Origin: Bryobacterales bacterium | GTDB lineage: Bacteria > Acidobacteriota > Terriglobia > Bryobacterales > UBA6623 | NCBI GenBank assembly: GCA_965217195.1 | Contig: CBDCHL010000003.1 | Coordinates: forward strand, 1,437,260 to 1,501,259 | Direction: 5' to 3' | DNA: 64,000 nt | Shown here: positions 1,185 through 63,516 of the stretch, one piece after another | Layout of the letters: each line of letters starts with the position of its first letter | How positions within the stretch are numbered: position 1 is the first letter of the stretch | The notes under the pieces: model-generated | Seen by the model: the letters and a program-made list of their open reading frames with translations, nothing else | The model's database searches: none | What the model was told of the DNA's origin: nothing | Program-made: the position numbers and the translations under genes

Positions 1185-2033
1185 ATGGCAACCAATGCAC
1201 AAATCAATGCAAATCGCGAAAACGCAAAAAAATCTACCGGACCGCGTACACCCCAGGGCAAGGAGCGTTCATCCAAAAACGCTCTCAAGCACGGCCTGCT
1301 CGCCCTAGACTCCGTCATCCCCGGCGAAGACCCCGCCGATTTCGACCGGCACCTCACTCTTTACGAGGACACCTACAACCCCGCAAACTGCGTCGAAAGA
1401 GAACTCGTCCTCCAAATCGCCGACTCGGCGTGGAGAATGCGACGCCTCTCCCGTATCGAAGCCAGCGTCATGACCGCCGGGATCGAAAGGACCCGCGTTC
1501 ATCAACAAACATACCGCCCGGAGCGCATGCGGGAAGGACACGAAGGCAAGCTCCAACTGCTCGGCGCATCGATGTACGGCGGGACGAAATTCCTCAACGA
1601 CCTCGCCCGCTACGACGGCCACCTCAACCGCCGCCTCCACCGCGCCCTCGAGCTGATGATGAAAATCCGCAAGGAAGACCGAAAACTCCGCGAAGCGGAA
1701 AACAAAGATTCAACCAACAGAGACCGAGGCGTGGGCGGAAGTCCGCGCTCCTCCGGCGAGCCGGCTTGGGACGAAGTCATCGAAGATTACGGCCCGCGGG
1801 AAGACTACGGCCCGGTCAATCAGGCACAACCCACGCCAATCGCCGGGCGCAAAGGCCCCGCATCCGTGTCGAAGAGCGCTAGCGACCCCCGCCACGTCGC
1901 CCTGCGCGAAAAGCTACTGAACGAAGCCAATGCTTTAGTAAAGGCCTTGAAGAATAAGGAGTTCCCGGAGCCGGCCGACGAGAGCATCAGGCGCAAAGTA
2001 GAAGAAGGCCTGTCCTCAATCCCAAGCCGCTAG
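1185..2033 (+). CDS. conserved hypothetical protein (282 aa)
   Basis: GAGG RBS 9 nt upstream of the ATG. N-terminus MATNAQINANRENAKKSTGPRTPQGKERSSKNALKHGL resembles a widespread uncharacterised family in Acidobacteria and Planctomycetes (from memory). Coding-like codon usage. Confidence 0.7.
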   Translation: MATNAQINANRENAKKSTGPRTPQGKERSSKNALKHGLLALDSVIPGEDPADFDRHLTLYEDTYNPANCVERELVLQIADSAWRMRRLSRIEASVMTAGIERTRVHQQTYRPERMREGHEGKLQLLGASMYGGTKFLNDLARYDGHLNRRLHRALELMMKIRKEDRKLREAENKDSTNRDRGVGGSPRSSGEPAWDEVIEDYGPREDYGPVNQAQPTPIAGRKGPASVSKSASDPRHVALREKLLNEANALVKALKNKEFPEPADESIRRKVEEGLSSIPSR

Positions 2034-2376
2034 CCGGTCGGGTCTCACCAAACTGCCAAAGAAAGGAACCAACACCAACCGAAACCCGAACCAACTCCAG
2101 CCAAGCCTCACAAGAACCCAATCCTCGGCCAACCCCCCAAAACGCCGAGCCCAAAGTCCATCTCAAGGCCCGCCCGAATCTCATTCCGACAGCCCTCGAA
2201 AACAACACGACGCCGGAATCTCCACTATCCCAACCATGACGCCGCGAACGTTGCGGCGCCCCTCGGTCTCCTGGATGCCCGGTTCGTCTTGCCGCGACAG
2301 GGAAGCCAATGATGGAGAATAGACTCAGCCGGCAAACTTCCGGCAAACACCCCGTCGCAAAGGAGCCCTGACCATC

Positions 2377-3702
2377 GTGAAAACTGCGCCTGCAGGCACG
2401 CCGGACCAACTGTCCCGCGTTCGGATAGGTATCGTTTGTCTGATGTTCGGTCTGAGTGTCATCAGCTACTTTGACCGAACCATCATGTCGATTGCCGGCC
2501 CCGGGATCATGAAGGAATTTCAGCTCTCAGAAACCGGGATGGGGACGGTTTACTCGGCTTTCACCTTGGGCTATGCGTTGCTGATGATTCCCGGCGGGCG
2601 TTTCGCGGATCGCTTCGGCCCGCGTCGGGTGCTCACCTGGATGGCTCTAGGTTCCGCTCTATTCACTGCACTCACTCCACTGGGAGGCCGACCCGGGCTT
2701 GGCGCGTATTGGGGAGTTATCCCCTCGCTTATCATCATGCGTCTGGGGTTTGGATTCAGCACCGCTCCGCTTTATCCAACTTGCGGCAGGATGAACTTAA
2801 ACTGGATACCCCTGCAGCAGCGGGGTCGCGTCCAGGGCGTGGTGAACGCCGGATCCGGTTTCGGCGGCGCCGTCGCGCCGGTGCTGTTTGCCTGGATGAT
2901 CGCGTCCATTGGATGGCGCATTTCTTTCCTCGCGGCGGCGGCGGTGACGGCCGCGTTGGGGGCCACTTGGTTCTTCTATGCGCGCGACCGGCCTGGCGAG
3001 CATCCTTCAATAGGAGAGTCATTGGATGTCCCGCTTCCCGCAGTGGCCGATCGCGTCGAAACGCACAAGCCCACCCCCTGGAGAGCATTGCTGACCGACA
3101 AGAACTTAATCCTTCTCACGCTGGGATATTTCGCGGTTGGGTACTTCCAGTACATCTTTTTTTATTGGATGTATTATTATTTGGGCGAAATTCGCGGCCT
3201 GGAGTCGAGTGAAAGCGCGGTCTATACCACCACGCTGTTCCTGACGTTTGGAATCATGATGTCGATCGGCGGCTGGGTCTGCGACCGCATGGCGGCCCGC
3301 TTTGGACGTAAATTGGGCTTGCGGTTGGTCGGGGTAGCCGGGCTCGGCCTGAGCGCAGTTCTTCTGTACGCGGGCGCCAACACGAATGACACCCTGACAG
3401 CGGTCGCACTGATGTCTCTGGCGCTTGGGTGCTCCGGAGTTTCCGACGTCACATTCTGGGCTGCCACGATCGATGTCGCGGGTGAAGAAGTCGGGGCTGC
3501 GTGCGGCATCCTGAACGCCGGCGGAAATATCGGGGGTCTCATCGCGCCTGTCTCGACGCCCTATATCGCGGCACAAGCCGGATGGTCTTGGGGTTTGTAT
3601 TTCGGGAGCGCCGTGGCACTGTTGGGGTCTCTCACCTGGCTTGGCGTCGACTGCACCCGGACCATTGACGTGCCTGGAAAGGCCGGCGACAAACAAGGGT
3701 AG
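2377..3702 (+). CDS. MFS transporter (ACS/hexuronate-like subfamily)
   Basis: 441 aa with about 12 hydrophobic segments. MFS signature GGRFADRFGPRRV after TM2. GTG start preceded by aaaggag. Confidence 0.9.
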   Translation: MKTAPAGTPDQLSRVRIGIVCLMFGLSVISYFDRTIMSIAGPGIMKEFQLSETGMGTVYSAFTLGYALLMIPGGRFADRFGPRRVLTWMALGSALFTALTPLGGRPGLGAYWGVIPSLIIMRLGFGFSTAPLYPTCGRMNLNWIPLQQRGRVQGVVNAGSGFGGAVAPVLFAWMIASIGWRISFLAAAAVTAALGATWFFYARDRPGEHPSIGESLDVPLPAVADRVETHKPTPWRALLTDKNLILLTLGYFAVGYFQYIFFYWMYYYLGEIRGLESSESAVYTTTLFLTFGIMMSIGGWVCDRMAARFGRKLGLRLVGVAGLGLSAVLLYAGANTNDTLTAVALMSLALGCSGVSDVTFWAATIDVAGEEVGAACGILNAGGNIGGLIAPVSTPYIAAQAGWSWGLYFGSAVALLGSLTWLGVDCTRTIDVPGKAGDKQG

Positions 3703-3713
3703 AGATGGGGTGG

Positions 3714-3898
3714 TTAGCCCGCTTTTCTCACCACCTGCCGGTCGAAGCACGTGATAGGCCCGTCATTACTTCGTTACGGTTGCCTGCCGTGCTCACTGTA
3801 CTGTTCAAGTACACCTCCGCGCGCCAGGGCGGCCCGTGCCTCGTACTGACAGCCCTCTCACGCACTTCGCCTCGCCACGTGGTGAGAAAAGCGGGCTA
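3714..3898. repeat. 185-nt extended imperfect palindrome (MITE-like or hairpin RNA)
   Basis: Terminal 20-bp arms tagcccgcttttctcaccac (3715-3734) and gtggtgagaaaagcgggcta (3879-3898). The inner arms are about 70% complementary. Apex is gtact-gttca-agtac. Confidence 0.6.
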
Positions 3899-4128
3899 GA
3901 ACTTCGAGCTCACCGTCAGAGGGCGAAATAAATCTTAAACCCGGACATCTATAATTCCTCCCAGAGAAGGTAGCCATACGCCGAAGCCTTTATCTGTCGT
4001 TCATCGTTGCGTCCGCGGTTGCAGCGACTCTTGCAAGCGGGCACGACGTCGATTGGCAAGATTTCAAGTAGCCACATCCTTCACGCCGGCTAGGATATAC
4101 TGACTTCCCGCTTAAGGAGGAGGCTCCC

Positions 4129-5115
4129 ATGAAACGACGCGACTTCCTAAGAACGACTGTGCTGCCGGCCCTGGGCGCCTCGGGGCTGAGCAGCTCCCAG
4201 CTGGAGCAAGCCGCCGCGCAAGGCCGCAAGTTGCGCGCCATCCCGCCGGTTGAGGCGCCCGCGACCAAGCGCATCATCGACATGCACGTTCATGCCTGGT
4301 TCCAAGACGACAAACCCGACGAGCCCCGCTTTGCTCCCGTACTCAACAACAGCCGGCCGGATGCCACCTATCAAATCAACGCCGGCTGGGAACAGTTTCA
4401 ACACGACCTCGACGTGGTCCACAAAGGCTGTCTGCTGCATATAGCCCTCGGAGATTCGGGCAAGAAAGGCAACGATCGGATCGCCAAAATCACGAAGCGA
4501 TGGCCGGAGAAGCTGATCCCTTTCGGGTCAGTCAACCCGCTCTTCGCCGACGCCCTGGATGAGTTCAAGCGCGCGGTTGAGGTCCTCGGCATGAAGGGTT
4601 TTAAGCTAAGCCCGATCTACCAGGGCTTCCGTCCGATGGATCCCCGTGCTGTACGGATTTACGCGAAAGCCCAGGAATGGGGTATCCCGCTCATCTTTCA
4701 CACGGCCACGGCTCAAGCGGCGAACATCCCTTTGAAGTGGGCCGATCCGATACTGTTTGACGATGTCGCCCACGCCTTCCCGGAATTGAAAATCATCATG
4801 GCCCATCTTGGACACCCCTGGCAAAAGGAGTGCTTCGTCATGGCGCGCAAGCACCCCAACGTCTACCTGGAGCTATCGGGGAACTTCTACCGCTCGTGGA
4901 ACTTCTACCAGGCGATGTTGTTCGCCGTGGAATGGGGCCAAACCTACAAGATCCTGTTCGGCAGCGACTGGCCGATCACGACGCCGCGTGAGACGATCGA
5001 GGGCTTGAACAACGTGAATCAATTCGCCCAAGCAGGCCTGCCGAAAATCCCACAAGCAGTGATCGACAGCATCATCTACCGTGACTCCCTGGCGCTGCTG
5101 AATATTGAGACCTAA
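4129..5115 (+). CDS. amidohydrolase-family protein (PF04909-like) with Tat signal
   Basis: AGGAGG RBS. MKRRDFLRTTVLPALG twin-arginine leader. HVHAW metal motif near the N-terminus and an HxGHPW motif. Confidence 0.85.
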   Translation: MKRRDFLRTTVLPALGASGLSSSQLEQAAAQGRKLRAIPPVEAPATKRIIDMHVHAWFQDDKPDEPRFAPVLNNSRPDATYQINAGWEQFQHDLDVVHKGCLLHIALGDSGKKGNDRIAKITKRWPEKLIPFGSVNPLFADALDEFKRAVEVLGMKGFKLSPIYQGFRPMDPRAVRIYAKAQEWGIPLIFHTATAQAANIPLKWADPILFDDVAHAFPELKIIMAHLGHPWQKECFVMARKHPNVYLELSGNFYRSWNFYQAMLFAVEWGQTYKILFGSDWPITTPRETIEGLNNVNQFAQAGLPKIPQAVIDSIIYRDSLALLNIET

Positions 5116-5194
5116 GTGCATGCCGACCCTGAGTGGGTTGGTGCGACCACGACGCGTCGAGCAGTGCAAGGAACTCGTGAGGACAGGGTCTGGT

Positions 5195-6049
5195 CTATTC
5201 CGGCGGGCCGGCGCGGGAACCGGCTCGGCCGCTGAAGCGCCGGCGCATCTCTTGCATTTCCCCTTGATCGATGAAGCCATCGTTGTCGGCGTCCATCATC
5301 GGGAAGCGCTGTTGCATCCTCTCGGGGAGTTCGTCTTTGGCGATTTTGCCGTCTTCGTTGGCGTCGAAACGTTCGAAGAAGCCTCCAGGGCCGCCCGGGC
5401 CGCGAGCAAAACGTCCGGGGCGACGACGGCCGTCGTTTTGCTCGGCCGGCGGTGCGGCGCCGGCTTCGTCGATCTTGGTGGCTTGAATGTTGATCGAGAT
5501 ATCCACATCGTCGCCTAGGACCAAGCCACCGCCGTCGAGGGCACGATTCCAAACGATGCCGTAATGTTTCCGGTCGAGGGACACCGAGGCCTCGAAGCCC
5601 ACCTTGTGATTACCACGGTTATCGGTGATGGCCCCCAAAAAACCTACGGGGAGAGTGATCTCCTTTGAGACACCGTGCATGCGGAAGGTCCCCTTGATGT
5701 CGTAGGCGTTGTCGCCGGTCTTGACGACCGCGGAGCTTTCGAAGGTGATCTCGGGATACGTTTCCACTTCAAAAAAGCTGTCGCTGCGGAGATCCTCGTC
5801 GCGTTTGTCGTGATTGGTGTCAATGCTTGCGGCTTGGATGGACACGTTGACCGAGGAGGCCTCGGGCTTGTCGGGGTCGAAACGAATGAGTCCCTCGAAG
5901 TCGGAGAAGCCGCCGCGGACTTTCGTAAGCAAATGTCGGATCTCAAAGCTGACGACCGAGTGGACCTTGTCAATCTCGTACGTTTCGGCCGAAAGGGGAA
6001 GCAGAGCGAGCAGCGCGGAGAGCAGGAAAGGGGTGCACCTTCTCTTCAT
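5195..6049 (-). CDS. YceI-like periplasmic protein fused to a C-terminal EF-hand pair
   Basis: Start moved to ATG 6049 (AAGGAG RBS; MKRRCTPFLLSALLALLPLSA signal peptide). YceI-like core: YEIDKVHSVVSFEIRHLLTKVRGGF. Two canonical Ca loops: DANEDGKIAKDE and DADNDGFIDQGE. Confidence 0.85.
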   Translation of the reverse strand: MKRRCTPFLLSALLALLPLSAETYEIDKVHSVVSFEIRHLLTKVRGGFSDFEGLIRFDPDKPEASSVNVSIQAASIDTNHDKRDEDLRSDSFFEVETYPEITFESSAVVKTGDNAYDIKGTFRMHGVSKEITLPVGFLGAITDNRGNHKVGFEASVSLDRKHYGIVWNRALDGGGLVLGDDVDISINIQATKIDEAGAAPPAEQNDGRRRPGRFARGPGGPGGFFERFDANEDGKIAKDELPERMQQRFPMMDADNDGFIDQGEMQEMRRRFSGRAGSRAGPPE

Positions 6050-12129: not shown

Positions 12130-12232
12130 CTAGTGCCACGACCGCTTGCAAAAGTTTGTTTGGCGGCAAAGCACTATTCTTGAGTGACCGCATCGCGTGG
12201 CGATGCGGCTCTGTTTGGCAAGTGGTTTCCTC
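12130..12232. repeat. repeat family 3, 103-nt module (copy A)
   Basis: 100/103 identical to the reverse complement of 54722-54824. Contains a perfect 9-bp hairpin ccgcatcgc-gtg-gcgatgcgg. Confidence 0.85.
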
Positions 12233-12302
12233 CGCGATGGCGTAAAGAACAACTCGAATCATACATCGGCGGCGTTTCAGGCCGGGGCTCTCGGACCGCG
12301 AG

Positions 12303-20681: not shown

Positions 20682-22775
20682 TACCGAATCAAGCGAAATC
20701 GAGCCCTGCCAGGGCGAACGGAACGAGCCTGTCATCCGACCTGCCTCGTCACCGGCACCCATTTTCATGGCGGTCTTATGAATGCGGCGATGCATGGAAA
20801 CGGAACTCCTTCGATGGGTCCAAAAAATCGGTGCGTACCGGGGGCTATTGGCAGGATCCGCCGTCCGAGCTGATCGCGGCGGTCACAACGTTGCTGGGCA
20901 CGCTGTCGATTACAATCTGCACCTCGATCGAGCAACCAACAGATGCGTCGGAAGGGATTTCTGCGTTGGCCTGGTAGAGGTGCGGGGAGTCGGGGCTGAG
21001 TCCGACAAAGCTTGGGTTCACGGATTGTGATCCGATTCGAACCTGGGCATCGTTCGCAATGCGATTGACGCCGCTGGCGGCGAACCCATCCGCGACAGGG
21101 GTCTGAGTGGGGCCGAACCCCGTGCCGAAGATCGTGACGAATTGTCCCGGCATGGCGGGCGACTGGAAAGTGTTCGTCAGCACGGTACCGTCGCCGGCGA
21201 CGTTCTGAATGGCTCCCGGCCCCGTTCCGTCTTGCGATTGGGAGAACAGGACCGGGCGCACAGTGGTTACGCGGACGGTTTCGGCGGGACCGGTGAGACC
21301 ATTGGAAGTCACGACGACGTCAGCCGTGGGCCCTTCGACTGCTTGAGGCACGACAATGACGAGCGGGCTGGGACTTGACGAAAATTATCGGCGCAGGAAG
21401 GCCGCCAACTGTTACGGAGGTTCCGCCCAAAGAAAGCGGGAAGGGAACTGTAGAGACCGAGTCTTCGCCGGAGGCGAGGCTTTCCCCGAAAATCGAGACA
21501 AACATGCCGCCAGCCAGTTCGCCGCCGGGGCGGTCGTTGCCGGTAAAGTCGGCGGAATTGACGACGCCCTTGGAGAAGATCAGGGGTGTGCCCTCGACCA
21601 CGATGCTCATACGAACCGCGACGACAGTGGGAGGATCCGACGATCCGACGGTTTCGATCGTGACGGATCCCTCGTGCAGGCCCAGGCCGAGGCCGAGCGG
21701 GCTTATGGTCACAAGAATGACTGACGGCGTTTCCCCCGCGGTTTGAGAAAGCTGGAGCCACGGCACGTTGACCGAGGCCGTCCAATCGGTTTTCTCGCCG
21801 TCGGAGTTGACTTCGATCATCTGAGCGGGCGGGGGCGCCAAACCCGATACAGCGATGAAGGAGAGTGCGTCGGGTTCGATCAAGAGTTTCGAGGTGACCG
21901 CCGGAGTTGTTACGAGGTGAAAGTTGTCGAGCCCGGCGGTTTCGCGCCCCGGGGCCTCATCGGCACTGACTTCGATGCGTTGGACAGCTCCAAGGGTTTC
22001 CTCAAAAGAAAGCACACCGCCTAGGTTTTCCCATTCCAAGGGGTCGAGCGGTGCGGCGTAACGGGCCCAGCCGGTGGCCGGGAGCGGGCCGCGGAAGCGG
22101 TAGGCGGCTCCAAAGCCGACGATCCGTACCTCGATTTCCCGTTTTGCCGCTTGGTCAGACGAGTGGAGACGGTCGAATTCAAAGCGGGCTTCCGGACCCA
22201 GGTTCGCCAGATTGCCGAGGAACTTTCGCGGGGCTACAAAGAAATCGCGTTTTTCCTCGTCGAAGTCGAGAAGCTTGATATAGCCTCCCGGGTTGCCGCC
22301 TGGGCCGGCAGGGCCAAAGTTCTGGGAGGCCCGCACTTCGCCCAGCGTCGCCCCGGGAGTACGGGGAATCAAGAGGGGCGAACCCGGGAAGTTATGTTTC
22401 CATCCGTCGGTGGTCCCATCCTCGAAATCGGAGACAACCGGAAAGACCGGCACGGGCACTTCGCCCAGTAGAACGAAATTGTCGAGCGTAGTCTTACCAG
22501 GACCGCCGTCGAAGCTGCCGCGGATCTCAAACCGCTGCACTTCGGCAAGGACCTCTTCAAACGAGGCCTGCCCGCCGAGCCGCTGCCAGCCCGATTCTTC
22601 GAAGAGCGCGGAATAGGTTACAAAGTTTCGCTTGGGAATCAGGGCCCGCCAACCGAAGGCACTGTCGCGGCCTAACATTTTGACTTCAACGGCCGTCTTG
22701 GCGAAGCCGTCGTCGGGACGATGTTTCAGGTCGAATCTGAGGCGGCCGCGAGGACCCAACAAAGCTAAGTTGCCT

Positions 22776-23823
22776 CCTGCTTATACGGTTGTTTCAGCAA
22801 GCCCCAAGATGTTGGGGTGGAGGTCATCGCGTCTTGTCCAGGTCACGCGCGCGGCGGATGTGGGCGTAAGGCGTAGGAGCGTGTTGAGTTCCGAGACCAA
22901 GGAGGGTTTGGAAGGCTGCCATTGGGGTCTTGCGGCGGTTGTGTCGAAACACGAACTCATCGAGGTAAACCTGAAGCTGAGCGCGGCTCACGCCGTGGTA
23001 CGTTCCGGTCAGCCATTGCTGCAGGTTGCCAATGGCACGATCCGCCAGCGGCACCACCGACTTGGCGCCTTTCCGCAAGTCAGTCCGGTGAGGTTGCGGA
23101 CGAGAGACGTGTTTGTAGCCGGCCTCTTCGAGGGCGGTAAAGGTCTTCAGACCGTCTGTGTAGATGGTCGAGCCGGGAACAACGTTCTGGGCAAGAAACC
23201 TGTCGATCGTCACCTTCTTGAAGTCTGGAATAACGGACATGCGAACGCGCCCGGAGCGCTTCCCGCGTTTCTCAACAGCGACCATCACAAGGGCCGCACG
23301 GCGCCCCTTCAGTTGCCGGCTGCCTCGCAAACCTGCTTGCGGGCCGCCAATCCAGGTGTCATCGACCTCTACTTCTCCGTGCAAGGGCTCGCGAGCTGCG
23401 TTCACCATGGCCCGTCGCAGTTTGTGCAACATCATCCAGGCGGTTTCGTAGCGCGACAGGCCGAGCTGACGCTGCAGTAGCAGCGCCGACACACCTCGCT
23501 TATCAGTTGTCATCAGGTACGCAGCCCAAAACCAAACCGTCAGCGGGGTCTTCGTATTGTGGAGCACCGTTCCCGACGTCAACGAGACCTGGTGTCGACA
23601 CGCCGCGCACTGCCACCGTAGTTTCTGCTCGAGAATGTAGGCCTGCCGATGCCCACACTAGGACAAAGGAACCCGTCGGGCCAACGACAAGCAGCCAGGT
23701 ACTTCTGGCAAGCCTCCTCGGTCGCAAACTCCACCTGAAACTGACGCAGACTCTTCGGAAACGGCGGCCGGGCCACGCCCTACCCTACATCTTGGGGCTT
23801 GCTGAAACAACCGTATAAGCAAG
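22776..23823 (-). mobile_element. IS1595-family insertion sequence (1048 bp)
   Basis: 37-bp terminal IRs at 22776-22812 and 23787-23823 (36/37 match). 8-bp direct target duplication agttgcct at 22768-22775 and 23824-23831. Confidence 0.9.
22824..23776 (-). pseudogene. IS1595-family (ISXO2-like DDE) transposase, frameshifted in the N-terminal zinc ribbon
   Basis: ORFs 23579..23776 and 22824..23582 together. Reading ...RWPDGFLCP then shifting one base near 23655-23662 restores CGHRQAYILEQKLRWQCAACRHQVSLTSGTVLHNTKTPL (CPxCG...CxxC). The DDE core contains VEVDDTWIGG and IYTDG. Confidence 0.8.
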
Positions 23824-24631
23824 AGTTGCCTAGATATCTTGAAGGCGTGACGAACGCGTCCACTCCTCTCCCTTCGAGCACGAGGGCTCGCGACTCATCT
23901 CTATTGGGGGGTGTTACCGAAAGCACCGAGTCGGGGTCGCCAACGGTTCTGAGCCGGATTTCGGGTTCCGGCGCCGGGTAGTTGATGGTCCATCCATCTA
24001 TCCCGGATTCGAAGTCGGACCTAGCAAGCGTCGCGAGACCCGCAATGTCGTCGTTGCTGACTAGGGTTGCGACGATTGTGCCGGTGGCTGCTTGGTTTCC
24101 GTCAAGGCCCAACGTGGCGATGAAATAGGTTCCTTCTTCGAGGGGTGGGACGCTGCTGTCGTCAATGACGATTTGCTCGGTGCCGCCGGCGCCCGTGGAG
24201 CTGTGGTCGGTGAAAACGAACCCTTCCGGATTGATTTCGACGTCTTCGTCAAAGCGCGCGAACAGGTCCAACTCCGTTTCCGGCGGAGACGCCGCAAGGT
24301 CGATGACCAGCCGAGCGGTGTCCGGAGGAACGACGATTACGAGACTACTATCACCGTTGAAAAGAGTGGTCTCTTCAATCGCCGGATAATCAATGACGGC
24401 GGGTTCTCCGGGAACCAATTCAACCGGTTGCGACCACACCGGGAGCGCGGCGAAACCCGCAAGAAAAAGCAAGCGGCGGAAGATTGAGTCGGTCATAACC
24501 AAGAGGCGGTAACAGCGAGGTCCCCCGAATTGTATCCAATGTTGGGGCTCCGGGTAAATGTATCAACTGTACTAGCTGTACCAGTGAGCCCGACTTGGAC
24601 CGCGAGGATCTCCAGGCCGGCGATCTAACGC

Positions 24632-24789
24632 AGATACAGAGCCCAGAGCGAAAGCGACGGGCCGAGGGCACATCGGTTCGAGCAGCAGGCAGACTGTGAA
24701 ATGCGCACAAAGTTCGAGCAGACGCGGTGCCGAAGCGCCTTGCAGTTGCCTGCCCTTGGCCCGTCGCTTTCGCTCTGGGCTCTGTATCT
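24632..24789. repeat. REP family 2, inverted pair (37-bp arms, 84-bp spacer)
   Basis: 24632-24668 agatacagagcccagagcgaaagcgacgggccgaggg matches the reverse complement of 24753-24789 with 1 mismatch. Confidence 0.85.
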
Positions 24790-34710: not shown

Positions 34711-34800
34711 CGCTCCCCCCGGGTACCGACCGGCCAACCGACCCCGCCATCTGCCGCCAAATCGCCCAGGGCCCAGCCAAGGCAACGCCCCGCCGGCCCC

Positions 34801-35102
34801 AAACCGAGCCGCGACCGTGAGGGAGCGGTGTCCGATGAAGTTGAATTGGGTGCTGGGAAGGTGGCGGGCCCCAGGGACGCGCCCCGGCCGTCCCCTCTTG
34901 TGTAACGGAACTCTCAAGCGTGCGCGCCGGGTCCGGATCTCCGGGGGGGGCCGGGGGATACTGATTGCGAGTATTGCGCCCTTGGGGTTGGGTTGCAGGC
35001 ATGGCGCTTCCTGGTTTGGCTGCGAGTATTGCGCTTCCGTCACGTTTCTTCGGGTTGACAGACTTCATCGGACACCGCTTCCTTACGGTCGCGGCTCGGT
35101 TT
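34801..35102. repeat. REP family 1: 302-bp element bounded by 40-bp inverted copies (MITE-like)
   Basis: 34801-34840 aaaccgagccgcgaccgtgagggagcggtgtccgatgaag matches the reverse complement of 35063-35102 (38/40). Internal direct repeat tgcgagtattgcgc at 34966-34979 and 35021-35034. Confidence 0.8.
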
Positions 35103-35134
35103 GCGAACAAAGGCCGGCGTTGGAAACTACGCGA

Positions 35135-37768: not shown

Positions 37769-37783
37769 GGTTTCTTCTTCTCC

Positions 37784-37823
37784 AAACCGAGCCGCGACCG
37801 TAAGGAAGCGGTGTGCGATGAAG
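37784..37823. repeat. REP family 1, single copy abutting the SDR gene RBS
   Basis: aaaccgagccgcgaccgtaaggaagcggtgtgcgatgaag. 39/40 identical to the reverse complement of 35063-35102. Confidence 0.8.
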
Positions 37824-39137: not shown

Positions 39138-39214
39138 GCGGAAGGTTGGTCGTTTTCCGTAAAGCGGTGCAGTGCGCCTGCGTGCTTCCGCCAGAGTCGT
39201 GAGTTCAAAATTTA

Positions 39215-39243
39215 TTGACGCCCACCAGCAAGTCAGGTAGAAT
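39215..39243 (+). promoter_or_regulatory. near-consensus sigma70 promoter
   Basis: TTGACG (39215-39220), a 17-nt spacer, then TAGAAT (39238-39243). Confidence 0.6.
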
Positions 39244-39284
39244 ACGGTCATATCCGGTACGCTCGTAGGCGAGCACGTATTTTC

Positions 39285-39320
39285 AAAGCCCCTCGGGAAC
39301 CCCCGGGGGGCTTTGCATTT
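39285..39320 (+). terminator. intrinsic terminator (13-bp GC-rich stem, AACC loop, UUUGCAUUU)
   Basis: aaagcccctcggg-aacc-cccggggggcttt then gcattt. It lies about 40 nt after the predicted TSS and 11 nt before the NYN gene ATG. A weaker hairpin gctcg-tagg-cgagc plus TTTT sits at 39261-39283. Confidence 0.6.
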
Positions 39321-39330
39321 CCTCTTCCAA

Positions 39331-39930
39331 ATGAAGAGAATCGCTATCTTGATCGACGGCGGCTACCTCCGTGTCATCGCGAGACAGTCAGCGATCGATT
39401 TCAACCCGGACCTTATCGAAGCGTTTTCGCAAGGCTGCCGGGAAAGCAGGGAAGAAATCCACCGCGTCCTCTACTATGACTGCGCACCGTACAATGGCGA
39501 AGCCAACCGCCCGATTTCGGGTACCAAGCAGGTGTTTAGGGGATCGGATGACTGGCTTCAGCAATTGGCGAGGAAGGACCTGTTCGCTGTCCGGCGCGGG
39601 GTCCTCAAGTTCCGAGGTTACAAACCGAAACGCATCCCCATGCCCTCGCGGCCGGCCTTGAAAGATGAAGATTTCAAACCGGACTTCGAGCAAAAGGGAG
39701 TCGATATGAGAATTGGGCTCGACATTGCCTCATTCTCTGAAAAGCGTTCCGTTGAGCGGATCTTGCTCGTATCAGGGGACACTGACTGCGTTCCGGCGAT
39801 GAAGTACGCTCGCATTGCCGGACTTCAGGTCGTGCTGGCACACTTACCCGGTACGCGGCTGGCAGCCGAACTGCTTCATCACAGTGACTATGTGCGCACG
39901 GTGCCCTGGCCGGCTAGGGCCACGAGTTAG
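39331..39930 (+). CDS. NYN/LabA-like domain protein (predicted RNase fold)
   Basis: MKRIAILIDGGYL at the N-terminus, EQKGVDMRIGLDI and LVSGDTDCVPAM are the NYN (PF01936) acidic motifs. ATG 39331 preferred over TTG 39313. Confidence 0.85.
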   Translation: MKRIAILIDGGYLRVIARQSAIDFNPDLIEAFSQGCRESREEIHRVLYYDCAPYNGEANRPISGTKQVFRGSDDWLQQLARKDLFAVRRGVLKFRGYKPKRIPMPSRPALKDEDFKPDFEQKGVDMRIGLDIASFSEKRSVERILLVSGDTDCVPAMKYARIAGLQVVLAHLPGTRLAAELLHHSDYVRTVPWPARATS

Positions 39931-39993
39931 AATCGGCCTCCTGACCATCACCGATATTCGTGGTGACGGAGCCACCGACAGTTCCGGAACACG

Positions 39994-42760: not shown

Positions 42761-44749
<1,989 letters not shown>

Positions 44750-44761
44750 GTCCCGCCACTA

Positions 44762-44938
44762 TAGATTCAGAGCCCAGAGCGCAAGCGACGGGCCAAGCGC
44801 ACCGCAACCGCCACGCCTTCGAAACCACGTCACCCCGAGCAGTCACTTACTTAGGCACGCCTACGGGGCGGCGAGGGGCCGCGCACCGGCGAGGGGCCGT
44901 GCCCCGGCCCGTCGCTTGCGCTCTGGGCTCTGCATCTA
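44762..44938. repeat. REP family 2, inverted pair immediately upstream of the RAYT-like gene
   Basis: 44762-44794 tagattcagagcccagagcgcaagcgacgggcc matches the reverse complement of 44906-44938 with 1 mismatch. 111-bp spacer. Confidence 0.85.
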
Positions 44939-45419
44939 CAAACGATGTGAGTTGCTTGCTATCGTGAAATCAACGTGGGGGAAGCCTCCTTGCCCAGACG
45001 GCCCGGTGCCGGCCCCTGGGCGTATTTCATTACTTTCACCTGCCGCGGTGCACGACTTCACGGAGACGATAACGGTTCAGTCGACCGTTTTCATGACGCC
45101 TGGAGAACTCCCATGCTCGACCCGGATCCACGCCGGGCGGACTATGAGAGCCGTTTATCTCCAGGCGGCAAGGTAACGCTGAACACTCCACAACGACGAA
45201 CTGTTCTCCGATCGATTCGCCAACACACTGCCTATCGTGGATGGACTCTCCACCCCGCCCATGTGCGGACGAACCACGTTCATCTGGTCGTGGAGTCGGA
45301 GGAGGAGCCCGAGACCGTGCTCGCTCAAGTGAAAGCCTACGCAACGCGCGCACTCAACGAATTATTGAATCTCGCAAAATAAAGTGACACCTTTTTGGGG
45401 TACGTACGTCTTTGTATGT

Positions 45420-46435
45420 ATGGGAAATACAAAAGGCGTACGGCGGGATTTCGAGGCCCTGGAGAAGCGCCGTTTCAAAGCGATCCGGTTGGTCGAGCAA
45501 GGCTGTAGTCAGTCCGAGACAGCGAGGCGATTGAAGGTCGCGCGGCAAAGCGTCAGCGAGTGGCTGCGACGATACCGGCGTGACGGCGAAGCCGGGTTGC
45601 GCCAGGCCGGCCGCGCCGGCCGTAAGCCGCTGTTGGACGCCGCGCAGCTCGAACGCCTCGAGGCGTTGCTGCTGGAAGGCCCCGAGGCGCACGGCTTCCC
45701 GACGCCGCTGTGGAGCTGTCCGCGGGTCGCTCGTCTGATCGGAGACGAGTTCGGCGTGCGCTATCACGAGGGCCATGTCTGGAAGATCCTGCGGGCGCTC
45801 GGTTGGAGCCCGCAACGGCCCGTCGGCAAAGCGCGGGAGCGCAACGAAGAGGCCATCCGCGGCTGGCAGCGCAAGACTTGGCCGGCCATTAAAAAAAAGC
45901 CCGCAAAGAAGAACGTACGATCGTCTTCATCGACGAAAGCGGATTGAGTCAGAAGCCGCATCGTTGCCGCACCTGGGCGCCGCGCGGCGAGACACCGGTG
46001 TTGGAGTTCAACTTCAACTGGGACAAGCTGTCGGTGTCGGCCGGGCTGACGTTGCGCAACTTTTACTTCCGGCTCTATCCCGGCGCGATCGGCGAGCTGG
46101 AGGTCATCGACTTCCTGAAGGCTTTGGTGCGCCACATCGACGGCCCACTGCTGATCGTCTGGGACCGGCTGCCGGCGCACCGCAGCCGCCTGGTGCGGGA
46201 GTTCATCCAGCTCTCCGAGGATCACATCGCAACGGAGTACTTGCCGCCCTATGCGCCGGAGTTGAACCCGGTGGAATACATTTGGGCGTACTGGAAGCAG
46301 CACGAGTTGCCCAACGTCTGCCCGAAGGACTACTGGGAACTCGACGAGCGCGCCCGCAAAGCGCTGCGGCGAATGCGCCGCAAACCGCGCTTGATTACCG
46401 CTTTCTGGAAACAGTCTTCTCTTTGTCTCGATTGA
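45420..46435 (+). CDS. IS630-family DDE transposase, two frames joined by -1 frameshift
   Basis: ORF A has HTH domains (CSQSETARRLKVARQSVSEWL). ORF B has TIVFIDESG (first D), WDRLPAH and LPPYAPELNPVEYIW (DDE). The frames overlap at A_AAA_AAG. Confidence 0.85.
45893..45899 (+). promoter_or_regulatory. -1 frameshift slippery heptamer A_AAA_AAG
   Basis: Zero-frame codons are att aaa aaa aag. A slip of -1 continues as gcc cgc aaa gaa gaa cgt acg atc gtc ttc atc gac gaa (ARKEERTIVFIDE). Confidence 0.6.
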
Positions 46436-46612
46436 CAGTATATTATGCGAGACTCAGTAGGCCCCCGCCGTGAGCGCCGTTGGGCGCACCACGGCAGTAC
46501 CCGCTATCTGTGGAATCCGCATGAGGTGGATGCCGCCGTTCAGTACGTCCTCGAGCAGCAAGGCGTGCCGATGGCCATCTACCTAAACCCGAACCGTTGG
46601 CCCCCGAGATGA

Positions 46613-46792
46613 GATTCAGAGCCCAGAGCGCAAGCGACGGGTCGAGCGCACCGCAACCGCCATCCTGCAAAACCCACGTCACCCCGAGCAGTTGCTTGCT
46701 TAGGCATAGGCAGGGTCGCAGGCCGGCGCTGGGCCCTGTGCCGGGGTGTCCGCCAGCTCCGTTCCCGACGACTCGCTCACTCGTGGCTGAAC
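46613..46792. repeat. REP family 2 copy starting 1 nt after the RAYT stop, with a possible degenerate partner arm
   Basis: 46613-46641 gattcagagcccagagcgcaagcgacggg. The spacer is homologous to that of the 44762-44938 copy (gcgcaccgcaaccgcca...cacgtcaccccgagcag). The right arm near 46764-46792 is only weakly similar. Confidence 0.65.
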
Positions 46793-46882
46793 TACGAGTC
46801 GGGTCCACGCAAATGTCAGGGAACCCAACGGCCGTCGGCGGTGTCTGTTTCTAGTGAGGCCGCTCGTCCCCGGTTGAAGTAA

Positions 46883-48364
46883 ATGACGCGAGTTTTGTTG
46901 TTGCTGTGCGCGGCATCCTGCGTACTCGGGGCCGCGGAGCCTGAGATCATATACGGCACTTACGTTGGCGGCACCAGGAAAGAAGGGGCGTCGGCCATCG
47001 CGGTCGATGCGCGTGGCGAGGTTGTGATTGTCGGGTCAACCCCTTCTGAAGATTTCCCCGTAACCGCCGGCGCATTTCGTACAAAGAACCACGTTCGGAA
47101 CGATGACCACGTAGGTTTCGTCTCGCGACTCCGGCCGAACGGTAGCGCGCTGAGATATTCGACCCTCCTGGGAGGGAACTTCCGCACGGTGGCGCACGCC
47201 GTAGCCCTCGGTCGTGATGGTGAGGCTTACGTTGTAGGTAGCACGTGCTCGATCAACTTCCCTACAACATCAGACGCGCTGATCCCAAAGGCGCCCGGTT
47301 CGGAGTCCGCGGACAACTGCGACGGTTACTTGGCGGTCCTAGGTCGAGACGGCGCGGCGCTGCAGGCGAGTACCTTTTTTGGGGGTTCAAGTTCCGATAC
47401 GGTTTCCGCCCTGGCCCTCGGCCCGGCCGACGACGTCGTTGTCGCCGGCTCGACGGTTTCGATCGATCTGCCGGTAACGCCCGGCGCGCCTCAAAGCCGA
47501 GCTCCCGCCGGGGCCAACGGCTTTGTCGCCGTCGTAGACCGAGAAGCCCGCGCGCTTCGATTCGGGACCTACCTAGGTGGCACCGGAGATGAGTACGTCG
47601 TGGCAGTTCGGTCGGGCAGGGACGGGTGGATTTACGCTGCCGGCACAACCGACTCGCCCTCGTTCCCCGGTTTCCGTGAGCGCGTTCTCGGGCGGCCGCG
47701 CGAAACGCATCCGTTTATAGCGTGGTTGGACCCGCTTGGAAAGCGGCCGGCGACTGTCATCCGACTTGGCGGAAGCGGAGCCGATGCCGCGGAAGCATTT
47801 GACATAGATGAGGAAGGGGACCTGTATTTGGCGGGAACAACTTCGTCGTCCGACTTCTCGGTCACAACGACGGGTTCGCCCCGCTTGCGGGGTAGCAACG
47901 ATGGCTTCGTCGTGAAGATCTCCGCGGAGCTATTCGAGTCTGACCGCGATCCGGTTCTGTGGAGCCGATTCGTTGGCGGGTCGGAAGACGAAAATCTGTC
48001 CGCCATTTCGGCGGGAATGACGGGCTTTGTATTTGTGGGCGGGCGAAGCGGATCTCGGGACTTCCCGATTTCGATCGATGCGCTACGCAGCAGTCTTGAT
48101 AGAGCGAATGATGCGGTCCTGGTTCAGTTGCATTCGCAGAGCGGCGACCTGAAGTACTCCACCTTTATCGGTGCAGCGGACGCTCCCTCGGTGAGTTGGA
48201 TGAACGATCGAGTGACGGGAATCGCAGCGACTGATACCGGGGACGTTTACGTGACAGGCTGGAGTAAGAGCATTAGTCACCTCGTCAATGCCGGAGCGTT
48301 CCAGCCGAGCCCCCGGGGGAACACCGAGCCTATCGTGGTTCGACTGCGCTTTCGTCTGCGGTAG
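46883..48364 (+). CDS. SBBP (beta-propeller) repeat protein, secreted
   Basis: Signal peptide. Repeated units of the type GG..D.A.AIAVD..G...VVGST.S.DFPVT (for example YVGGTRKEGASAIAVDARGEVVIVGSTPSEDFPVT). Confidence 0.85.
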   Translation: MTRVLLLLCAASCVLGAAEPEIIYGTYVGGTRKEGASAIAVDARGEVVIVGSTPSEDFPVTAGAFRTKNHVRNDDHVGFVSRLRPNGSALRYSTLLGGNFRTVAHAVALGRDGEAYVVGSTCSINFPTTSDALIPKAPGSESADNCDGYLAVLGRDGAALQASTFFGGSSSDTVSALALGPADDVVVAGSTVSIDLPVTPGAPQSRAPAGANGFVAVVDREARALRFGTYLGGTGDEYVVAVRSGRDGWIYAAGTTDSPSFPGFRERVLGRPRETHPFIAWLDPLGKRPATVIRLGGSGADAAEAFDIDEEGDLYLAGTTSSSDFSVTTTGSPRLRGSNDGFVVKISAELFESDRDPVLWSRFVGGSEDENLSAISAGMTGFVFVGGRSGSRDFPISIDALRSSLDRANDAVLVQLHSQSGDLKYSTFIGAADAPSVSWMNDRVTGIAATDTGDVYVTGWSKSISHLVNAGAFQPSPRGNTEPIVVRLRFRLR

Positions 48365-48508
48365 GCGGGCCCCATTGGTGGATTCGGCGTCGTTTCGCGC
48401 GGCGAGTGGGCACCCCACTCCTCCCGCGTACGAATACCTACCGCAAGTTAACGTTCAACCTGGTAAAATATCGGCCAGCCGGACGCTTTCGTCCCGGAGG
48501 CACATCCC

Positions 48509-54707: not shown

Positions 54708-54721
54708 GAGCTGCCGGCGCA

Positions 54722-54824
54722 GAGGAAACCACTTGCCAAACAGAGCCGCATCGCCACGCGATGCGGTCACTGAAGAATAGTGCTTTGCCGCCAAACAAAC
54801 TTTTTCAAGCGGTCGTGGTACTAG
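54722..54824. repeat. repeat family 3, 103-nt module (copy B; opposite orientation to copy A relative to the 40-nt module)
   Basis: gaggaaaccacttgccaaacagagccgcatcgccacgcgatgcggtcactgaag...ctag. Confidence 0.85.
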
Positions 54825-56275: not shown

Positions 56276-56332
56276 GATATTCCTCCCTAGTTCGGGCCCC
56301 GTTCCAAAGCCGCGGGAAATTTCATCACGTAG

Positions 56333-62633: not shown

Positions 62634-63516
62634 TAGGGTCGAGAACTGGCGCGGTGGCCCGTCAGGACGCCGGCTTGGCTGTATCCGGGGTTTCCCCCTT
62701 CGTGCCCGTTTAGCCGTGTCCGTAGCTCCGTCTCCAGCTCCCGCCACCTCGCACGCAGCGTGCGGATTTCCCGCACTACGCGCTCCTGCACACTTCGCGA
62801 CAAGATTTATGAGACCTATCCGGTTGGAGTTGCTTTCGACGATGGCCCTGGAGCCGTCACCCAGATTCAGGTGTCCGCTCCCACCATCGACTACTCCACC
62901 CCTTCCATCCGAAGCCTTGGCACGACGCCAAGGCCATTCAGCCTTCCTCTTGCCGTATAGTCCTGATCGCAGATCCTGCAGACTGCTGGACGCTTTTATC
63001 ATTCGTCCCTGCCTCACTGTTGTTGACCAAGACTTCACGTGCAGCAAGGTCCCATCGCTCCGCAGGCGTTACCCCGCTTCACCGCTACTACGAACCTAGC
63101 CGCCACCCTCTCGCCTTCCACCGACTTCCTGGTTGTCGCCAGTTATACGGCTTTCGTGCTCCGTCGATTTCGCGACGGGACGAGGAGGGCTTCTCCAGTT
63201 GCTTAGCATGCCCTTGTCACCGTGCTGTCCCTACCACCCCGCCGGAGTGACCTGGCGCCGCAGTCAGTTTGCGCCAAGTCATGCTGCCTTCGCCCGTGAT
63301 AAGGGGGCTCGGCCTCCGGGGTTTTAGCTTTTCGAGGCCACCTGTGGGTTCACTTCCGTTACGGCCCGGTGACTCGCTCACCATCCCAAGGATGGCTTTG
63401 TCGATTGGCTTCATCGGCTTCGTTTCCTCCACCGATGCAACTCAAGCTACGGGGCTCTGACTCTTACCCCGGTGGGACTGCCTCCCACTGAACATGCCAG
63501 CCTTCGCTGGACGCAC
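62634..63516 (-). mobile_element. group II intron, ORF-less/degenerate (RT gene almost entirely deleted); 3' boundary uncertain (62716 or about 62634)
   Basis: The minus strand starts GUGCG at 63516 (GTGCGTCCAGCGAAGGCTGGCATG...GGGTAAGAGTCAGAGCCCCG...). There is a remnant of an intron-encoded protein start (MIKASSSLQDLRSGLYGKRKAEWPWRRAKASDGRGGVVDG, compared with the usual SLQxLRxxIYxKAKAE...AKANxGAxGVDG). A domain-V-like hairpin GAGCGCGUA-GUGCGG-GAAAU-CCGCAC-(GC bulge)-UGCGUGC sits at about 62750-62785. Confidence 0.6.

Follow-up and report, generated by a model that had tools for sequence, protein, structure and literature searches.

A probable REPtron-like class 3 TnpA_Y1 cassette in a Bryobacterales acidobacterium, split by a recent IS630 insertion

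Introduction

Class 3 of the TnpA_Y1 transposases was defined by Quentin et al. (2018, BMC Genomics 19:475; PMC6006769) from a set of 24 proteins in Planctomycetes, Acidobacteria, and Proteobacteria. These proteins are about 178 aa long, with an extended conserved N-terminus and the motifs NHVH, W[TA], and YV[VI][AENY]EQ. Their genes are flanked by atypical secondary structures that have a CnGA foot and recur in the genome (there are about 600 copies in Solibacter usitatus), and the class was said to "resemble both IS and REPtrons" (IS, insertion sequence; REP, repetitive extragenic palindrome). Here we describe a gene of this kind and the repeats around it in 64,000 nt of DNA from the Bryobacterales bacterium assembly GCA_965217195.1 (contig CBDCHL010000003.1, positions 1,437,260 to 1,501,259 of the forward strand). 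We refer to this whole stretch as the window. It very probably contains a REPtron-like class 3 cassette (REP doublet, HUH-Y1 gene, REP doublet) of a Bryobacterales-type acidobacterium, which was knocked out by a recent IS630 insertion.

A second group of described systems is relevant. The terminal-inverted-repeat-associated tyrosine transposases (TIRYTs) include a sharply defined acidobacterial group, and some of their terminal inverted repeats (TIRs) belong to repeat families (Di Nocera et al., 2013; PMC3733652). Quentin et al. equated TIRYTs mainly with their subclass 2.1 (PMC6006769).

The gene, the repeat, and the IS at our locus each belong to known kinds, and one mobile element inside another is a fairly ordinary case. 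An earlier sequence-only reading of the window had recognized this arrangement. What goes beyond it is that the cassette appears to be mobile as a unit, that the core of the repeat recurs across Planctomycetota, and that relatives of the cassette lie in frame inside alaS, valS, hrpA, and addB.

Results

An IS630 element splits an HUH-Y1 gene

The open reading frame (ORF) at 44975-45382 encodes 135 aa and carries the motif HVHLVV. Its last 6 codons belong to an IS630 insert, and 130 residues of its own precede the foreign sequence. This N-terminal part of the gene (44975-45364, plus strand; residues 1-130) includes the HUH motif H101-V-H103. The C-terminal part (46460-46612, plus strand) encodes residues 131-180, with W138, HGST, the catalytic Y159, and Q164, and ends with the stop codon. 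The candidate start codons are GTG at 44975 and TTG at 44990; gene callers chose an internal ATG at 45113. Between the two parts lies an IS630-family insertion sequence of 1,093 nt (45365-46457, plus strand) whose imperfect TIRs, TTGAATCTCGCAAAATAA and CTGAGTCTCGCATAATAT, match at 14 of 18 positions. It sits at a TA target dinucleotide (45363-45364) that is duplicated at 46458-46459. If the IS and one TA are removed, joining 44975-45364 to 46460-46612, then a single ORF of 180 aa results, which ends with IYLNPNRWPPR and the stop codon.

The repair does not rely on inference, because near-identical strains show natural empty sites. We retrieved the same locus from many public assemblies by exact-sequence look-up. 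In 11 of these (L203-L212 and L222), uvrB and the downstream sequence match the window at 99-100% identity, and position 45364 runs straight into 46458, leaving one TA. The repaired ORF itself occurs in L222 at 100% identity. With L001, a more divergent locus that we discuss below, there are 12 empty-site loci, all with one TA only. Five others (L213-L217) carry the IS630 element; for one of these, L214, a comparison with the window over 6,270 nt shows 100% identity. As the intact and IS-split alleles occur together in the same samples (ERZ25069191 and ERZ25068966), the insertion is a recent polymorphism within the sampled populations.

The sequence-only reading had described the abruptly ending 135-aa ORF at 44975, an IS630-type element running from the TA at 45363-45364 to 46457 with a second TA after it, and the 180-aa frame obtained by deleting the IS and one TA. 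When we re-derived the coordinates they agreed, and both the joined ORF and the empty sites bear out the repair. It had also called the gene "now inactivated." The insertion point falls between the HUH motif and the Tyr motif of the gene, and no single polypeptide holds both; therefore, the window allele cannot make an active enzyme and is dead. That statement does not extend beyond the window allele, however, as intact alleles share the same samples. An ATG at 46445, inside the right end of the IS, opens a 55-aa ORF (46445-46612) in frame with the Tyr-bearing C-terminal fragment, and this ORF is on record as a gene-caller protein (P0143).

The IS630 transposase is encoded in two frames (45420-46435, plus strand), as ORFs 45420-45947 and 45944-46435. 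Both match the NCBIfam model transpos_IS630 (E = 3e-30 and 4e-27): the N half with 105.5 bits (cutoff 100) over profile positions 1-138 of 299, and the C half with 95.5 bits over positions 155-298 of 299. The Pfam domains are HTH_33, HTH_32, and DDE_3 (E = 1.2e-20 for DDE_3). A -1 shift in a run of eight A (A8, 45891-45898) would fuse the two ORFs into a protein of 338 aa. An 86%-identical IS630 relative (L203) has kept both the A8 run and the split ORFs, so programmed frameshifting seems more likely than decay. The exact protein of the first ORF is on record on 153 contigs, including that of a 6.92-Mb Bryobacterales metagenome-assembled genome (MAG). The 86%-identical relative lies in the sister strains L203 and L205-L207 (at about 4135-5234), with TA on both sides and the same A8 run and split ORFs; it occupies a TA inside a 493-aa SBBP gene (window position 47341, which is empty here).

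The repaired enzyme is a member of a large HUH-Y1 family

The repaired protein gives weak matches to the models of its expected relatives: Pfam Y1_Tnp (PF01797) at E = 1.6e-3 and 19 bits, under the 23-bit cutoff; NCBIfam REP_Tyr_transpos at E = 7e-6 and 25.9 bits (cutoff 80); and the NCBIfam IS200 model at 19.8 bits (cutoff 55). We found 870 full-length homologues (about 164-190 aa) whose sequences continue across the IS site, and most of them have a precomputed PF01797 match. In an alignment of 35 homologues, H101, H103, W138, HGST141-144, Y159, and Q164 are invariant. All 35 aligned members match NCBIfam transpos_IS200, and 34 of the 35 match REP_Tyr_transpos below its cutoff. A profile search of 1.84 billion cluster representatives returned 711 at E ≤ 1e-30. 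The named homologues are from Acidobacteria, Deltaproteobacteria, and Planctomycetota.

The AlphaFold model of the repaired protein (mean predicted local distance difference test score of 85.9) places Y159 on a helix (150-162) with Q164 just past the helix end. A Foldseek search of the Protein Data Bank (PDB) with this model returned the E. coli TnpA_REP in complex with a REP hairpin as the best match (4er8_A, E = 1.7e-5, TM scores 0.51 and 0.55), followed by the transposases of IS200, ISDra2, and IS608 (2f4f, 2xm3, and 2vjv). We conclude that the repaired gene is a full-length member of a large HUH-Y1 family with a TnpA_REP/IS200-like fold. Judging by its length of 180 aa and its motifs (TNHVH, RWA, and YVLEQQ), the enzyme fits class 3 of TnpA_Y1 rather than the canonical class of REP-associated tyrosine transposases (RAYTs). 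The earlier description of a RAYT-like Y1 transposase thus needs qualifying. Against the Y1 and RAYT models it is weak when the protein is taken alone, but it is upheld by the homologues, the invariant residues, and the fold; it fits in that TnpA_REP is the best fold match, but not in the sense of a canonical RAYT that acts on GTAG REPs.

Hairpin repeats accompany the gene and its homologues

The repaired gene lies between copies of one repeat (family A). Upstream, a REPIN-like REP doublet (44762-44938) consists of 33-nt arms at 44762-44794 (plus) and 44906-44938 (minus) that are 97% complementary and are separated by a 111-nt spacer. The entire unit has a folding energy of -65.3 kcal/mol (z = -8.0). 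Its spacer contains an 18-nt tandem duplication (CGGCGAGGGGCCGCGCAC, two copies at 44869-44904, plus strand) that varies among strains, with three copies in the sister strain L204. Within each 33-nt arm is a REP hairpin, a 20-nt stem-loop. In the left arm, the REP unit (44768-44792, plus strand) has the foot CAGA (44768-44771, of the form CnGA) and the hairpin CCC-A-GA-GC-GCAA-GC-GA-C-GGG, and the other arms have the CAGA foot as well. The stem in the window arms has 3 bp and an A.C mismatch; the family consensus has four bp. Downstream, a third arm begins at 46612, which is the last base of the stop codon. This downstream REP unit (46612-46706, plus strand) comprises a left arm (46612-46644) followed by some 60 nt of spacer, is 86% similar to the upstream unit over 95 nt, and is missing its right arm in this lineage; L001 has a complete doublet there. 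The sequence-only reading had reported the inverted pair and the downstream copy, and both are present, but the copy starts at 46612 rather than 46613, its homology ends near 46706 rather than 46792, and it lacks the right arm.

In the window as a whole, the 30-nt arm has five copies with at most 3 mismatches (at 24632, 24789, 44763, 44937, and 46612), as compared to none in 100 shuffles, and weaker copies at 56331 and 11790. The inverted pairs of family A span 158-177 nt, and their interiors are unrelated or partly related (24632-24789 vs. 44762-44938). A second REP family (B, CAAACCGAGCCGCGACCGTGAGGGAGCGGTG...) is represented by an inverted pair at 34800-35103 (with a 220-nt spacer) and a lone arm at 37783-37823. 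It reads CCGA-GCC-GC-GA-CC-GTGA-GG-GA-GC-GG, which is the same layout as in family A.

We examined homologues of the enzyme encoded at 80 metagenome loci and on several long contigs. Among the 67 homologue loci with both flanks, 38 have an inverted repeat between the two flanks (0 after shuffling), and repeated GAGC-led hairpin units lie within 250 nt of the gene ends at 62 of 84 homologue loci. The dominant layout is a plus unit upstream (54 units) and a minus unit downstream (67 units). To these we can add that, at the observed density, a single 540-bp gene has a chance of about 1e-4 of having arms within 40 nt at both of its ends. Given the family-wide pattern, a coincidence of repeat and Y1 gene is untenable. 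So the bracketing of the gene by one repeat, which the sequence-only reading had taken for the classic REP/RAYT arrangement, recurs in the family, and repeats of this kind are enriched around such genes elsewhere. That reading had also named the Y1 enzyme as the probable mobilizer of the repeat family; the association holds across homologues, and we infer from this association that the class 3 enzyme mobilizes the family A repeat.

The hairpin itself is supported by covariation. Our alignment included 135 distinct flanking units of equal length (12 units were excluded because their loops differed in length or their anchoring was wrong). Of the cells for the six proposed pairs, 92.1% are paired, as compared to 76.6% in shuffled alignments and 33-48% in slid controls. 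Changes on both sides of a pair occur in 88 cells (18.7 expected), and none of 500 shuffles reached either value. Columns 5-8 are invariant GAGC. The architecture is thus an invariant GAG(C), a stem of 3-4 bp, usually a tandem G.A, then 2 bp, and a loop of four bases (GNRA-type, most often G..A). Because covariation across the 135 units supports the hairpin, the unit is a true REP in the structural sense, and the doublets are REPIN-like. Near class 3 genes at five loci (L128, L162, L167, L184, and L186), tandem half-REPs of 15-21 nt (for example, seven copies of TACTGAGCCGCGACC) lie beside a full REP. Such arrays might record successive rounds of cleavage and rejoining, or they might be due to slippage.

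A scan with the core AGCCCNGAGCGMAAGCGRCGG, using one genome per species, found at least 113 stretches, nearly all of them from Planctomycetota (Planctomycetia, Phycisphaerae, Gemmataceae, and Kuenenia) and Bryobacterales. (Matches in Kineosporiaceae and Jiangellales lie inside coding sequence and were rejected as chance.) Among the matches listed (L002-L114), the 22-nt core AGCCCgGAGCGCAAGCGACGGG is almost invariant in over 100 stretches from Planctomycetota and Bryobacterales MAGs. The core often forms tight palindromes with loops of 8-12 nt, and L012 has 7 tandem copies with an 83-nt period. A tblastn search with the enzyme against the 113 repeat-bearing loci listed found one distant homologue only, a class-3-like gene on the Planctomycetia contig L070 that is 33% identical and is flanked by core units. 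A single homologue is expected if the repeats far outnumber the genes. Candidate explanations for the conservation of the core are a constrained enzyme-substrate pair and transfer across phyla.

The cassette differs between lineages as a unit

The upstream flank of the cassette, uvrB (42761-44749, plus strand), serves as a yardstick of lineage divergence. The uvrB of L001 is 86.4% identical to that of the window, 97.7% identical to that of L218 (the 6.92-Mb Bryobacterales MAG), and 94.9% identical to that of L219. L218 and L219-L221 lack the cassette, and in them about 97 nt separate uvrB from a FecR-like gene. L001 carries 913 nt of inserted DNA (doublet-gene-doublet) in place of 14 nt of this uvrB-fecR spacer. 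Its cassette is 98.5-98.9% identical to the window's (98.9% in the upstream doublet), as compared to 86% in the flanks. The two cassettes differ at 8 of 543 coding positions, and L001 keeps the full right doublet, which the window lineage is without. The junctions are sharp at the repeat ends: the right junction is common to the L001 and window lineages (insert|CGTRCGAA), and the left junctions are 11 nt apart.

Nearly identical (about 99%) cassettes thus lie between 86%-identical flanks, and the cassette is absent from close relatives; horizontal movement of the cassette as a unit between lineages is the simplest account that we can infer. A trivial alternative for L001 would be a chimeric metagenome assembly across repeats. 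The 8 coding differences, along with a complete right doublet that the window lineage does not have, argue against a chimera. Transfer by homologous recombination via the flanking genes is not supported, as there are no window-type single-nucleotide polymorphisms (SNPs) within 200 nt of either L001 junction. Possible routes are transposition, maybe with a site preference, or replacement by recombination in the conserved arms. At another pair of loci, L163 and L178, a common REP-gene-REP block of about 630 nt (92% identical) lies between unrelated flanks.

Downstream of the cassette, the window has a lineage-specific segment of 1.7 kb (46707-48426, plus strand) that replaces the downstream right arm and contains the 493-aa SBBP beta-propeller gene (46883-48364). 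This segment is absent from L001, L218, and L219-L221, and homology resumes at window position 48427; in these relatives the doublet, or uvrB where there is no cassette, leads directly to the FecR-like gene. Elsewhere in the window, next to the IF3 region, the tract at 39152-39950 is 96-98.5% identical to L001, as compared to about 86% in other places. It may be a recombination tract or it may be strongly conserved.

Related cassettes lie in frame in essential genes

Among the best 150 profile matches to the class 3 alignment, we found 12 long proteins. (Such proteins were set aside as fusions or errors in the 2018 survey of the classes; PMC6006769.) According to Pfam, five are alanyl-tRNA synthetases (AlaRS) that all have a Y1 domain at position 262/263 of the tRNA-synt_2c profile. 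The Y1 domain also occurs in two ValRS-type class I synthetases, an HrpA-type helicase, and AddB (valS, hrpA, and addB). The insert-bearing proteins are P0222, P0239, P0233, P0195, P0309, P0283, P0258, P0264, and P0286. In L223, alaS (2001-5444) is a continuous ORF whose insert (about 2858-3466) is a complete REP-gene-REP cassette in frame, with the REPs translated as SRDRKGAV and PLPHGRGS.

The Y1 parts of the inserts are 55-70% identical among themselves and the AlaRS parts are 63-81% identical; all of them keep NHVH and Y..Q. These levels of identity, with intact catalytic residues, suggest that the alaS insert is old and has been kept by selection. The in-frame inserts seem to resemble inteins in their persistence. 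Pfam finds no Hint or splicing domain in them at E ≤ 1e-5, a search that does not cover the junction residues, and a protein search with the AlaRS-insert junction returned mostly AlaRS fragments. Our literature search found no published description of Y1 cassettes in frame in these genes.

Other features of the window

An Rfam search found group II intron domains D1-D4 (RF02003) at 63354-63490 on the minus strand (120.7 bits, E = 1.7e-26). At 22774-23825, inverted repeats of 43 nt (95% complementary) surround a 252-aa ORF (22824-23582, minus strand), an arrangement suggestive of one more small insertion sequence. Another repeat family is represented by a 112-nt inverted pair (95%) whose members, 12130-12241 and 54713-54824, are 42 kb apart; adjoining them are direct repeats of 33-40 nt (11955/54668, 6231/54635, and 1720). 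We found no tRNA genes in the 64-kb window.

Discussion

How the cassette might work, and what else could explain it

By analogy to the E. coli TnpA_REP and the TnpA of IS608, the class 3 enzyme would bind the REP hairpin as single-stranded DNA. It might then cleave beside the foot, with Y159 forming a 5'-phosphotyrosine and with H101, H103, and Q164 holding the metal. Rejoining of the strands could copy or move the REP doublets of family A into further intergenic regions. Strains with the IS would have lost this activity, unless they have a paralogue outside the window that provides it.

Several observations weigh against a REPtron-like class 3 cassette of this kind, which we nevertheless consider very likely. 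The repaired protein, taken alone, scores under the Pfam and NCBIfam cutoffs, and a sequence-profile search of the PDB with the alignment of 35 homologues gave no significant match (the best Y1 protein was 2f4f, with E = 0.45, ranked under chance matches to SETD2). As for the repeats, a single arm folds weakly (-4.6 kcal/mol, z about -1.7, in a nearest-neighbor DNA model), and there are only 7 arms in 64 kb. Also, the assignment of the enzyme to the repeat is not exclusive, because family B fits the class 3 consensus REP better than family A does and has no Y1 gene nearby in the window. Finally, binding and cleavage of the hairpins by class 3 enzymes is an assumption, made by analogy to their better-known relatives.

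The alternative that deserves the most attention takes the cassette for an autonomous, IS200/IS605-type insertion sequence, in contrast to a fixed, domesticated RAYT whose only role is to act on repeats in trans: the cassette would move as a unit, the repeats would be its ends, and the solo doublets would be miniature inverted-repeat transposable elements (MITEs) derived from it. We regard this as possible, though on balance somewhat doubtful. It would account for a cassette that is missing from the uvrB-fecR spacer of L218 and L219-L221 and that, in L001, replaces 14 nt of this spacer with 913 nt, even though L001 and L218 are 97.7% identical in uvrB. It would also account for the contrast between cassette and flanks (98.5-98.9% vs. 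86%, and no donor-type SNPs within 200 nt of the junctions), the 92%-identical block of L163 and L178 in unrelated flanks, and the complete unit in frame in alaS, and it fits the published remark that class 3 genes resemble IS as well as REPtrons (PMC6006769). In the same vein, we tentatively entertain the view, at somewhat less than even odds, that the class 3 cassette is a compact self-moving element and not a domesticated, vertically kept RAYT. L001 would have gained its cassette after the split from its cassette-free relatives, and the same right junction, with no flanking DNA carried along, would point to site-directed integration by the Y1 enzyme. The in-frame inserts of related cassettes in alaS, valS, hrpA, and addB, with their catalytic residues preserved, belong to the same line of evidence. 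In contrast, every genome seen of the window's lineage has one copy at one locus, the cassette has no tnpB, and its flanking hairpins are inverted where those of IS608 are direct. We found no common target motif next to the seven arm ends examined, and the unrelated interiors of solo doublets (24632-24789 vs. 44762-44938) are a poor fit to simple deletion derivatives. Chimeric assembly across repeats could also mimic part of the identity contrast.

The other two alternatives concern the repeats. If these were MITEs of a DDE transposon (such as an IS630-family element, which uses TA), then their place on both sides of the Y1 gene would be coincidental. The doublets do end in inverted repeats of 33 nt, a TA...TA flank can be assigned to the upstream copy, and IS630 elements are active in the lineage. 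We rejected the doublets as IS630 MITEs because the arms show no sequence relationship to the IS630 ends and the TA flanks are inconsistent (they are absent at 24632-24789, at 46612, and at the right doublet of L001). As the chance of arms so close to both ends of a 540-bp gene is about 1e-4, and as 62 of 84 homologues on unrelated contigs are flanked in the same way, we consider a MITE origin to be very improbable. It is also unlikely, to a lesser degree, that the hairpins are host regulatory or structural elements (terminators, mRNA stabilizers, or protein-binding sites) beside which the Y1 gene inserts. All window copies are intergenic, the near-invariance of the core in over 100 of the listed stretches is unusual for selfish repeats, and REPs in E. 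coli bind IHF and gyrase and stabilize mRNA (PMC6006769). However, the repeats have no match in Rfam at the gathering threshold or even at E ≤ 1, and a terminator and promoter scan, otherwise uninformative, found no T-tract terminator signature. Furthermore, the hairpin sequences vary by lineage, pairing and the GAG foot are kept, and each variant flanks its own Y1 gene, which is the pattern that co-evolution of enzyme and substrate predicts. A host role and mobilization by the enzyme are mutually compatible.

Implications

The locus is a natural experiment: among co-occurring strains, some carry a clean knockout of the presumed REP-mobilizing enzyme and others do not, which allows a direct comparison of REP population dynamics in its presence and absence. 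The cassette also bears on a question left from 2018, which is whether class 3 HUH-Y1 genes are insertion sequences or domesticated REPtrons. Its presence or absence as a unit, its identity of about 99% across flanks that have diverged by 14%, and its sharp junctions at the repeat ends point to unit-level mobility. The covariation-supported architecture of the hairpin could guide biochemical work.

Comparison with described systems

The inserted element resembles other members of the IS630 family (Tc1/mariner superfamily) in its DDE_3 domain and N-terminal HTH, its short imperfect TIRs, its length of about 1.1 kb, and its TA duplication, which is proven by the empty sites. It differs in that its transposase appears to need a -1 shift in the A8 run. 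A -1 frameshifted transposase is a trait of a subset of the family.

The best structural match to the repaired enzyme is to the RAYTs (TnpA_REP, class 2; E. coli and Pseudomonas; 4ER8), with their REPs, bacterial interspersed mosaic elements (BIMEs), and REPINs. As in those systems, a single gene lies between inverted copies of a dispersed palindrome, the repeats form inverted doublets, and a short conserved 5' foot precedes an imperfect hairpin. There are also clear differences. The foot is CnGA, whereas that of a canonical REP is GTAG (GT[AG]G), and the Tyr motif (Y----Q, as YVLEQQ) is IS200-like, whereas RAYTs have YIxxNP. The score of 25.9 bits against REP_Tyr_transpos is far under the 80-bit cutoff, and the doublet spacers are long (80-111 nt) and variable. 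Also, our cassette shows signs of horizontal movement, and RAYTs have been reported as vertically inherited.

With the TnpA of IS200/IS605 elements (IS608 and ISDra2; 2VJV and 2XM3), the enzyme shares the HUH-Y1 fold and the Tyr followed by Gln. Both kinds of element have hairpin-bearing ends, and there are hints that window-type cassettes move as units too. Unlike those elements, the cassette has inverted ends, is without tnpB, and is present in a single copy per genome along with many dispersed solo hairpins. TIRtrons resemble it in that the TIRYT gene lies between long terminal inverted repeats that are not GTAG REPs (Di Nocera et al., 2013).

The closest likeness is to class 3 TnpA_Y1 itself, with which our system shares NHVH, W followed by A or T, the Y----Q spacing, the length of the protein, the CnGA foot, and hosts among the Acidobacteria and Planctomycetes. 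The Y motif of the window's enzyme, YVLEQQ, differs at two positions from the published YV[VI][AENY]EQ, and the window's copy is interrupted by an IS. The architecture of the hairpin, the presence or absence of the cassette as a whole, and the in-frame inserts are not part of the published description of the class (PMC6006769). And in environmental Acidobacteriota and Planctomycetota, the class 3 group is far larger than the 24 proteins of 2018.

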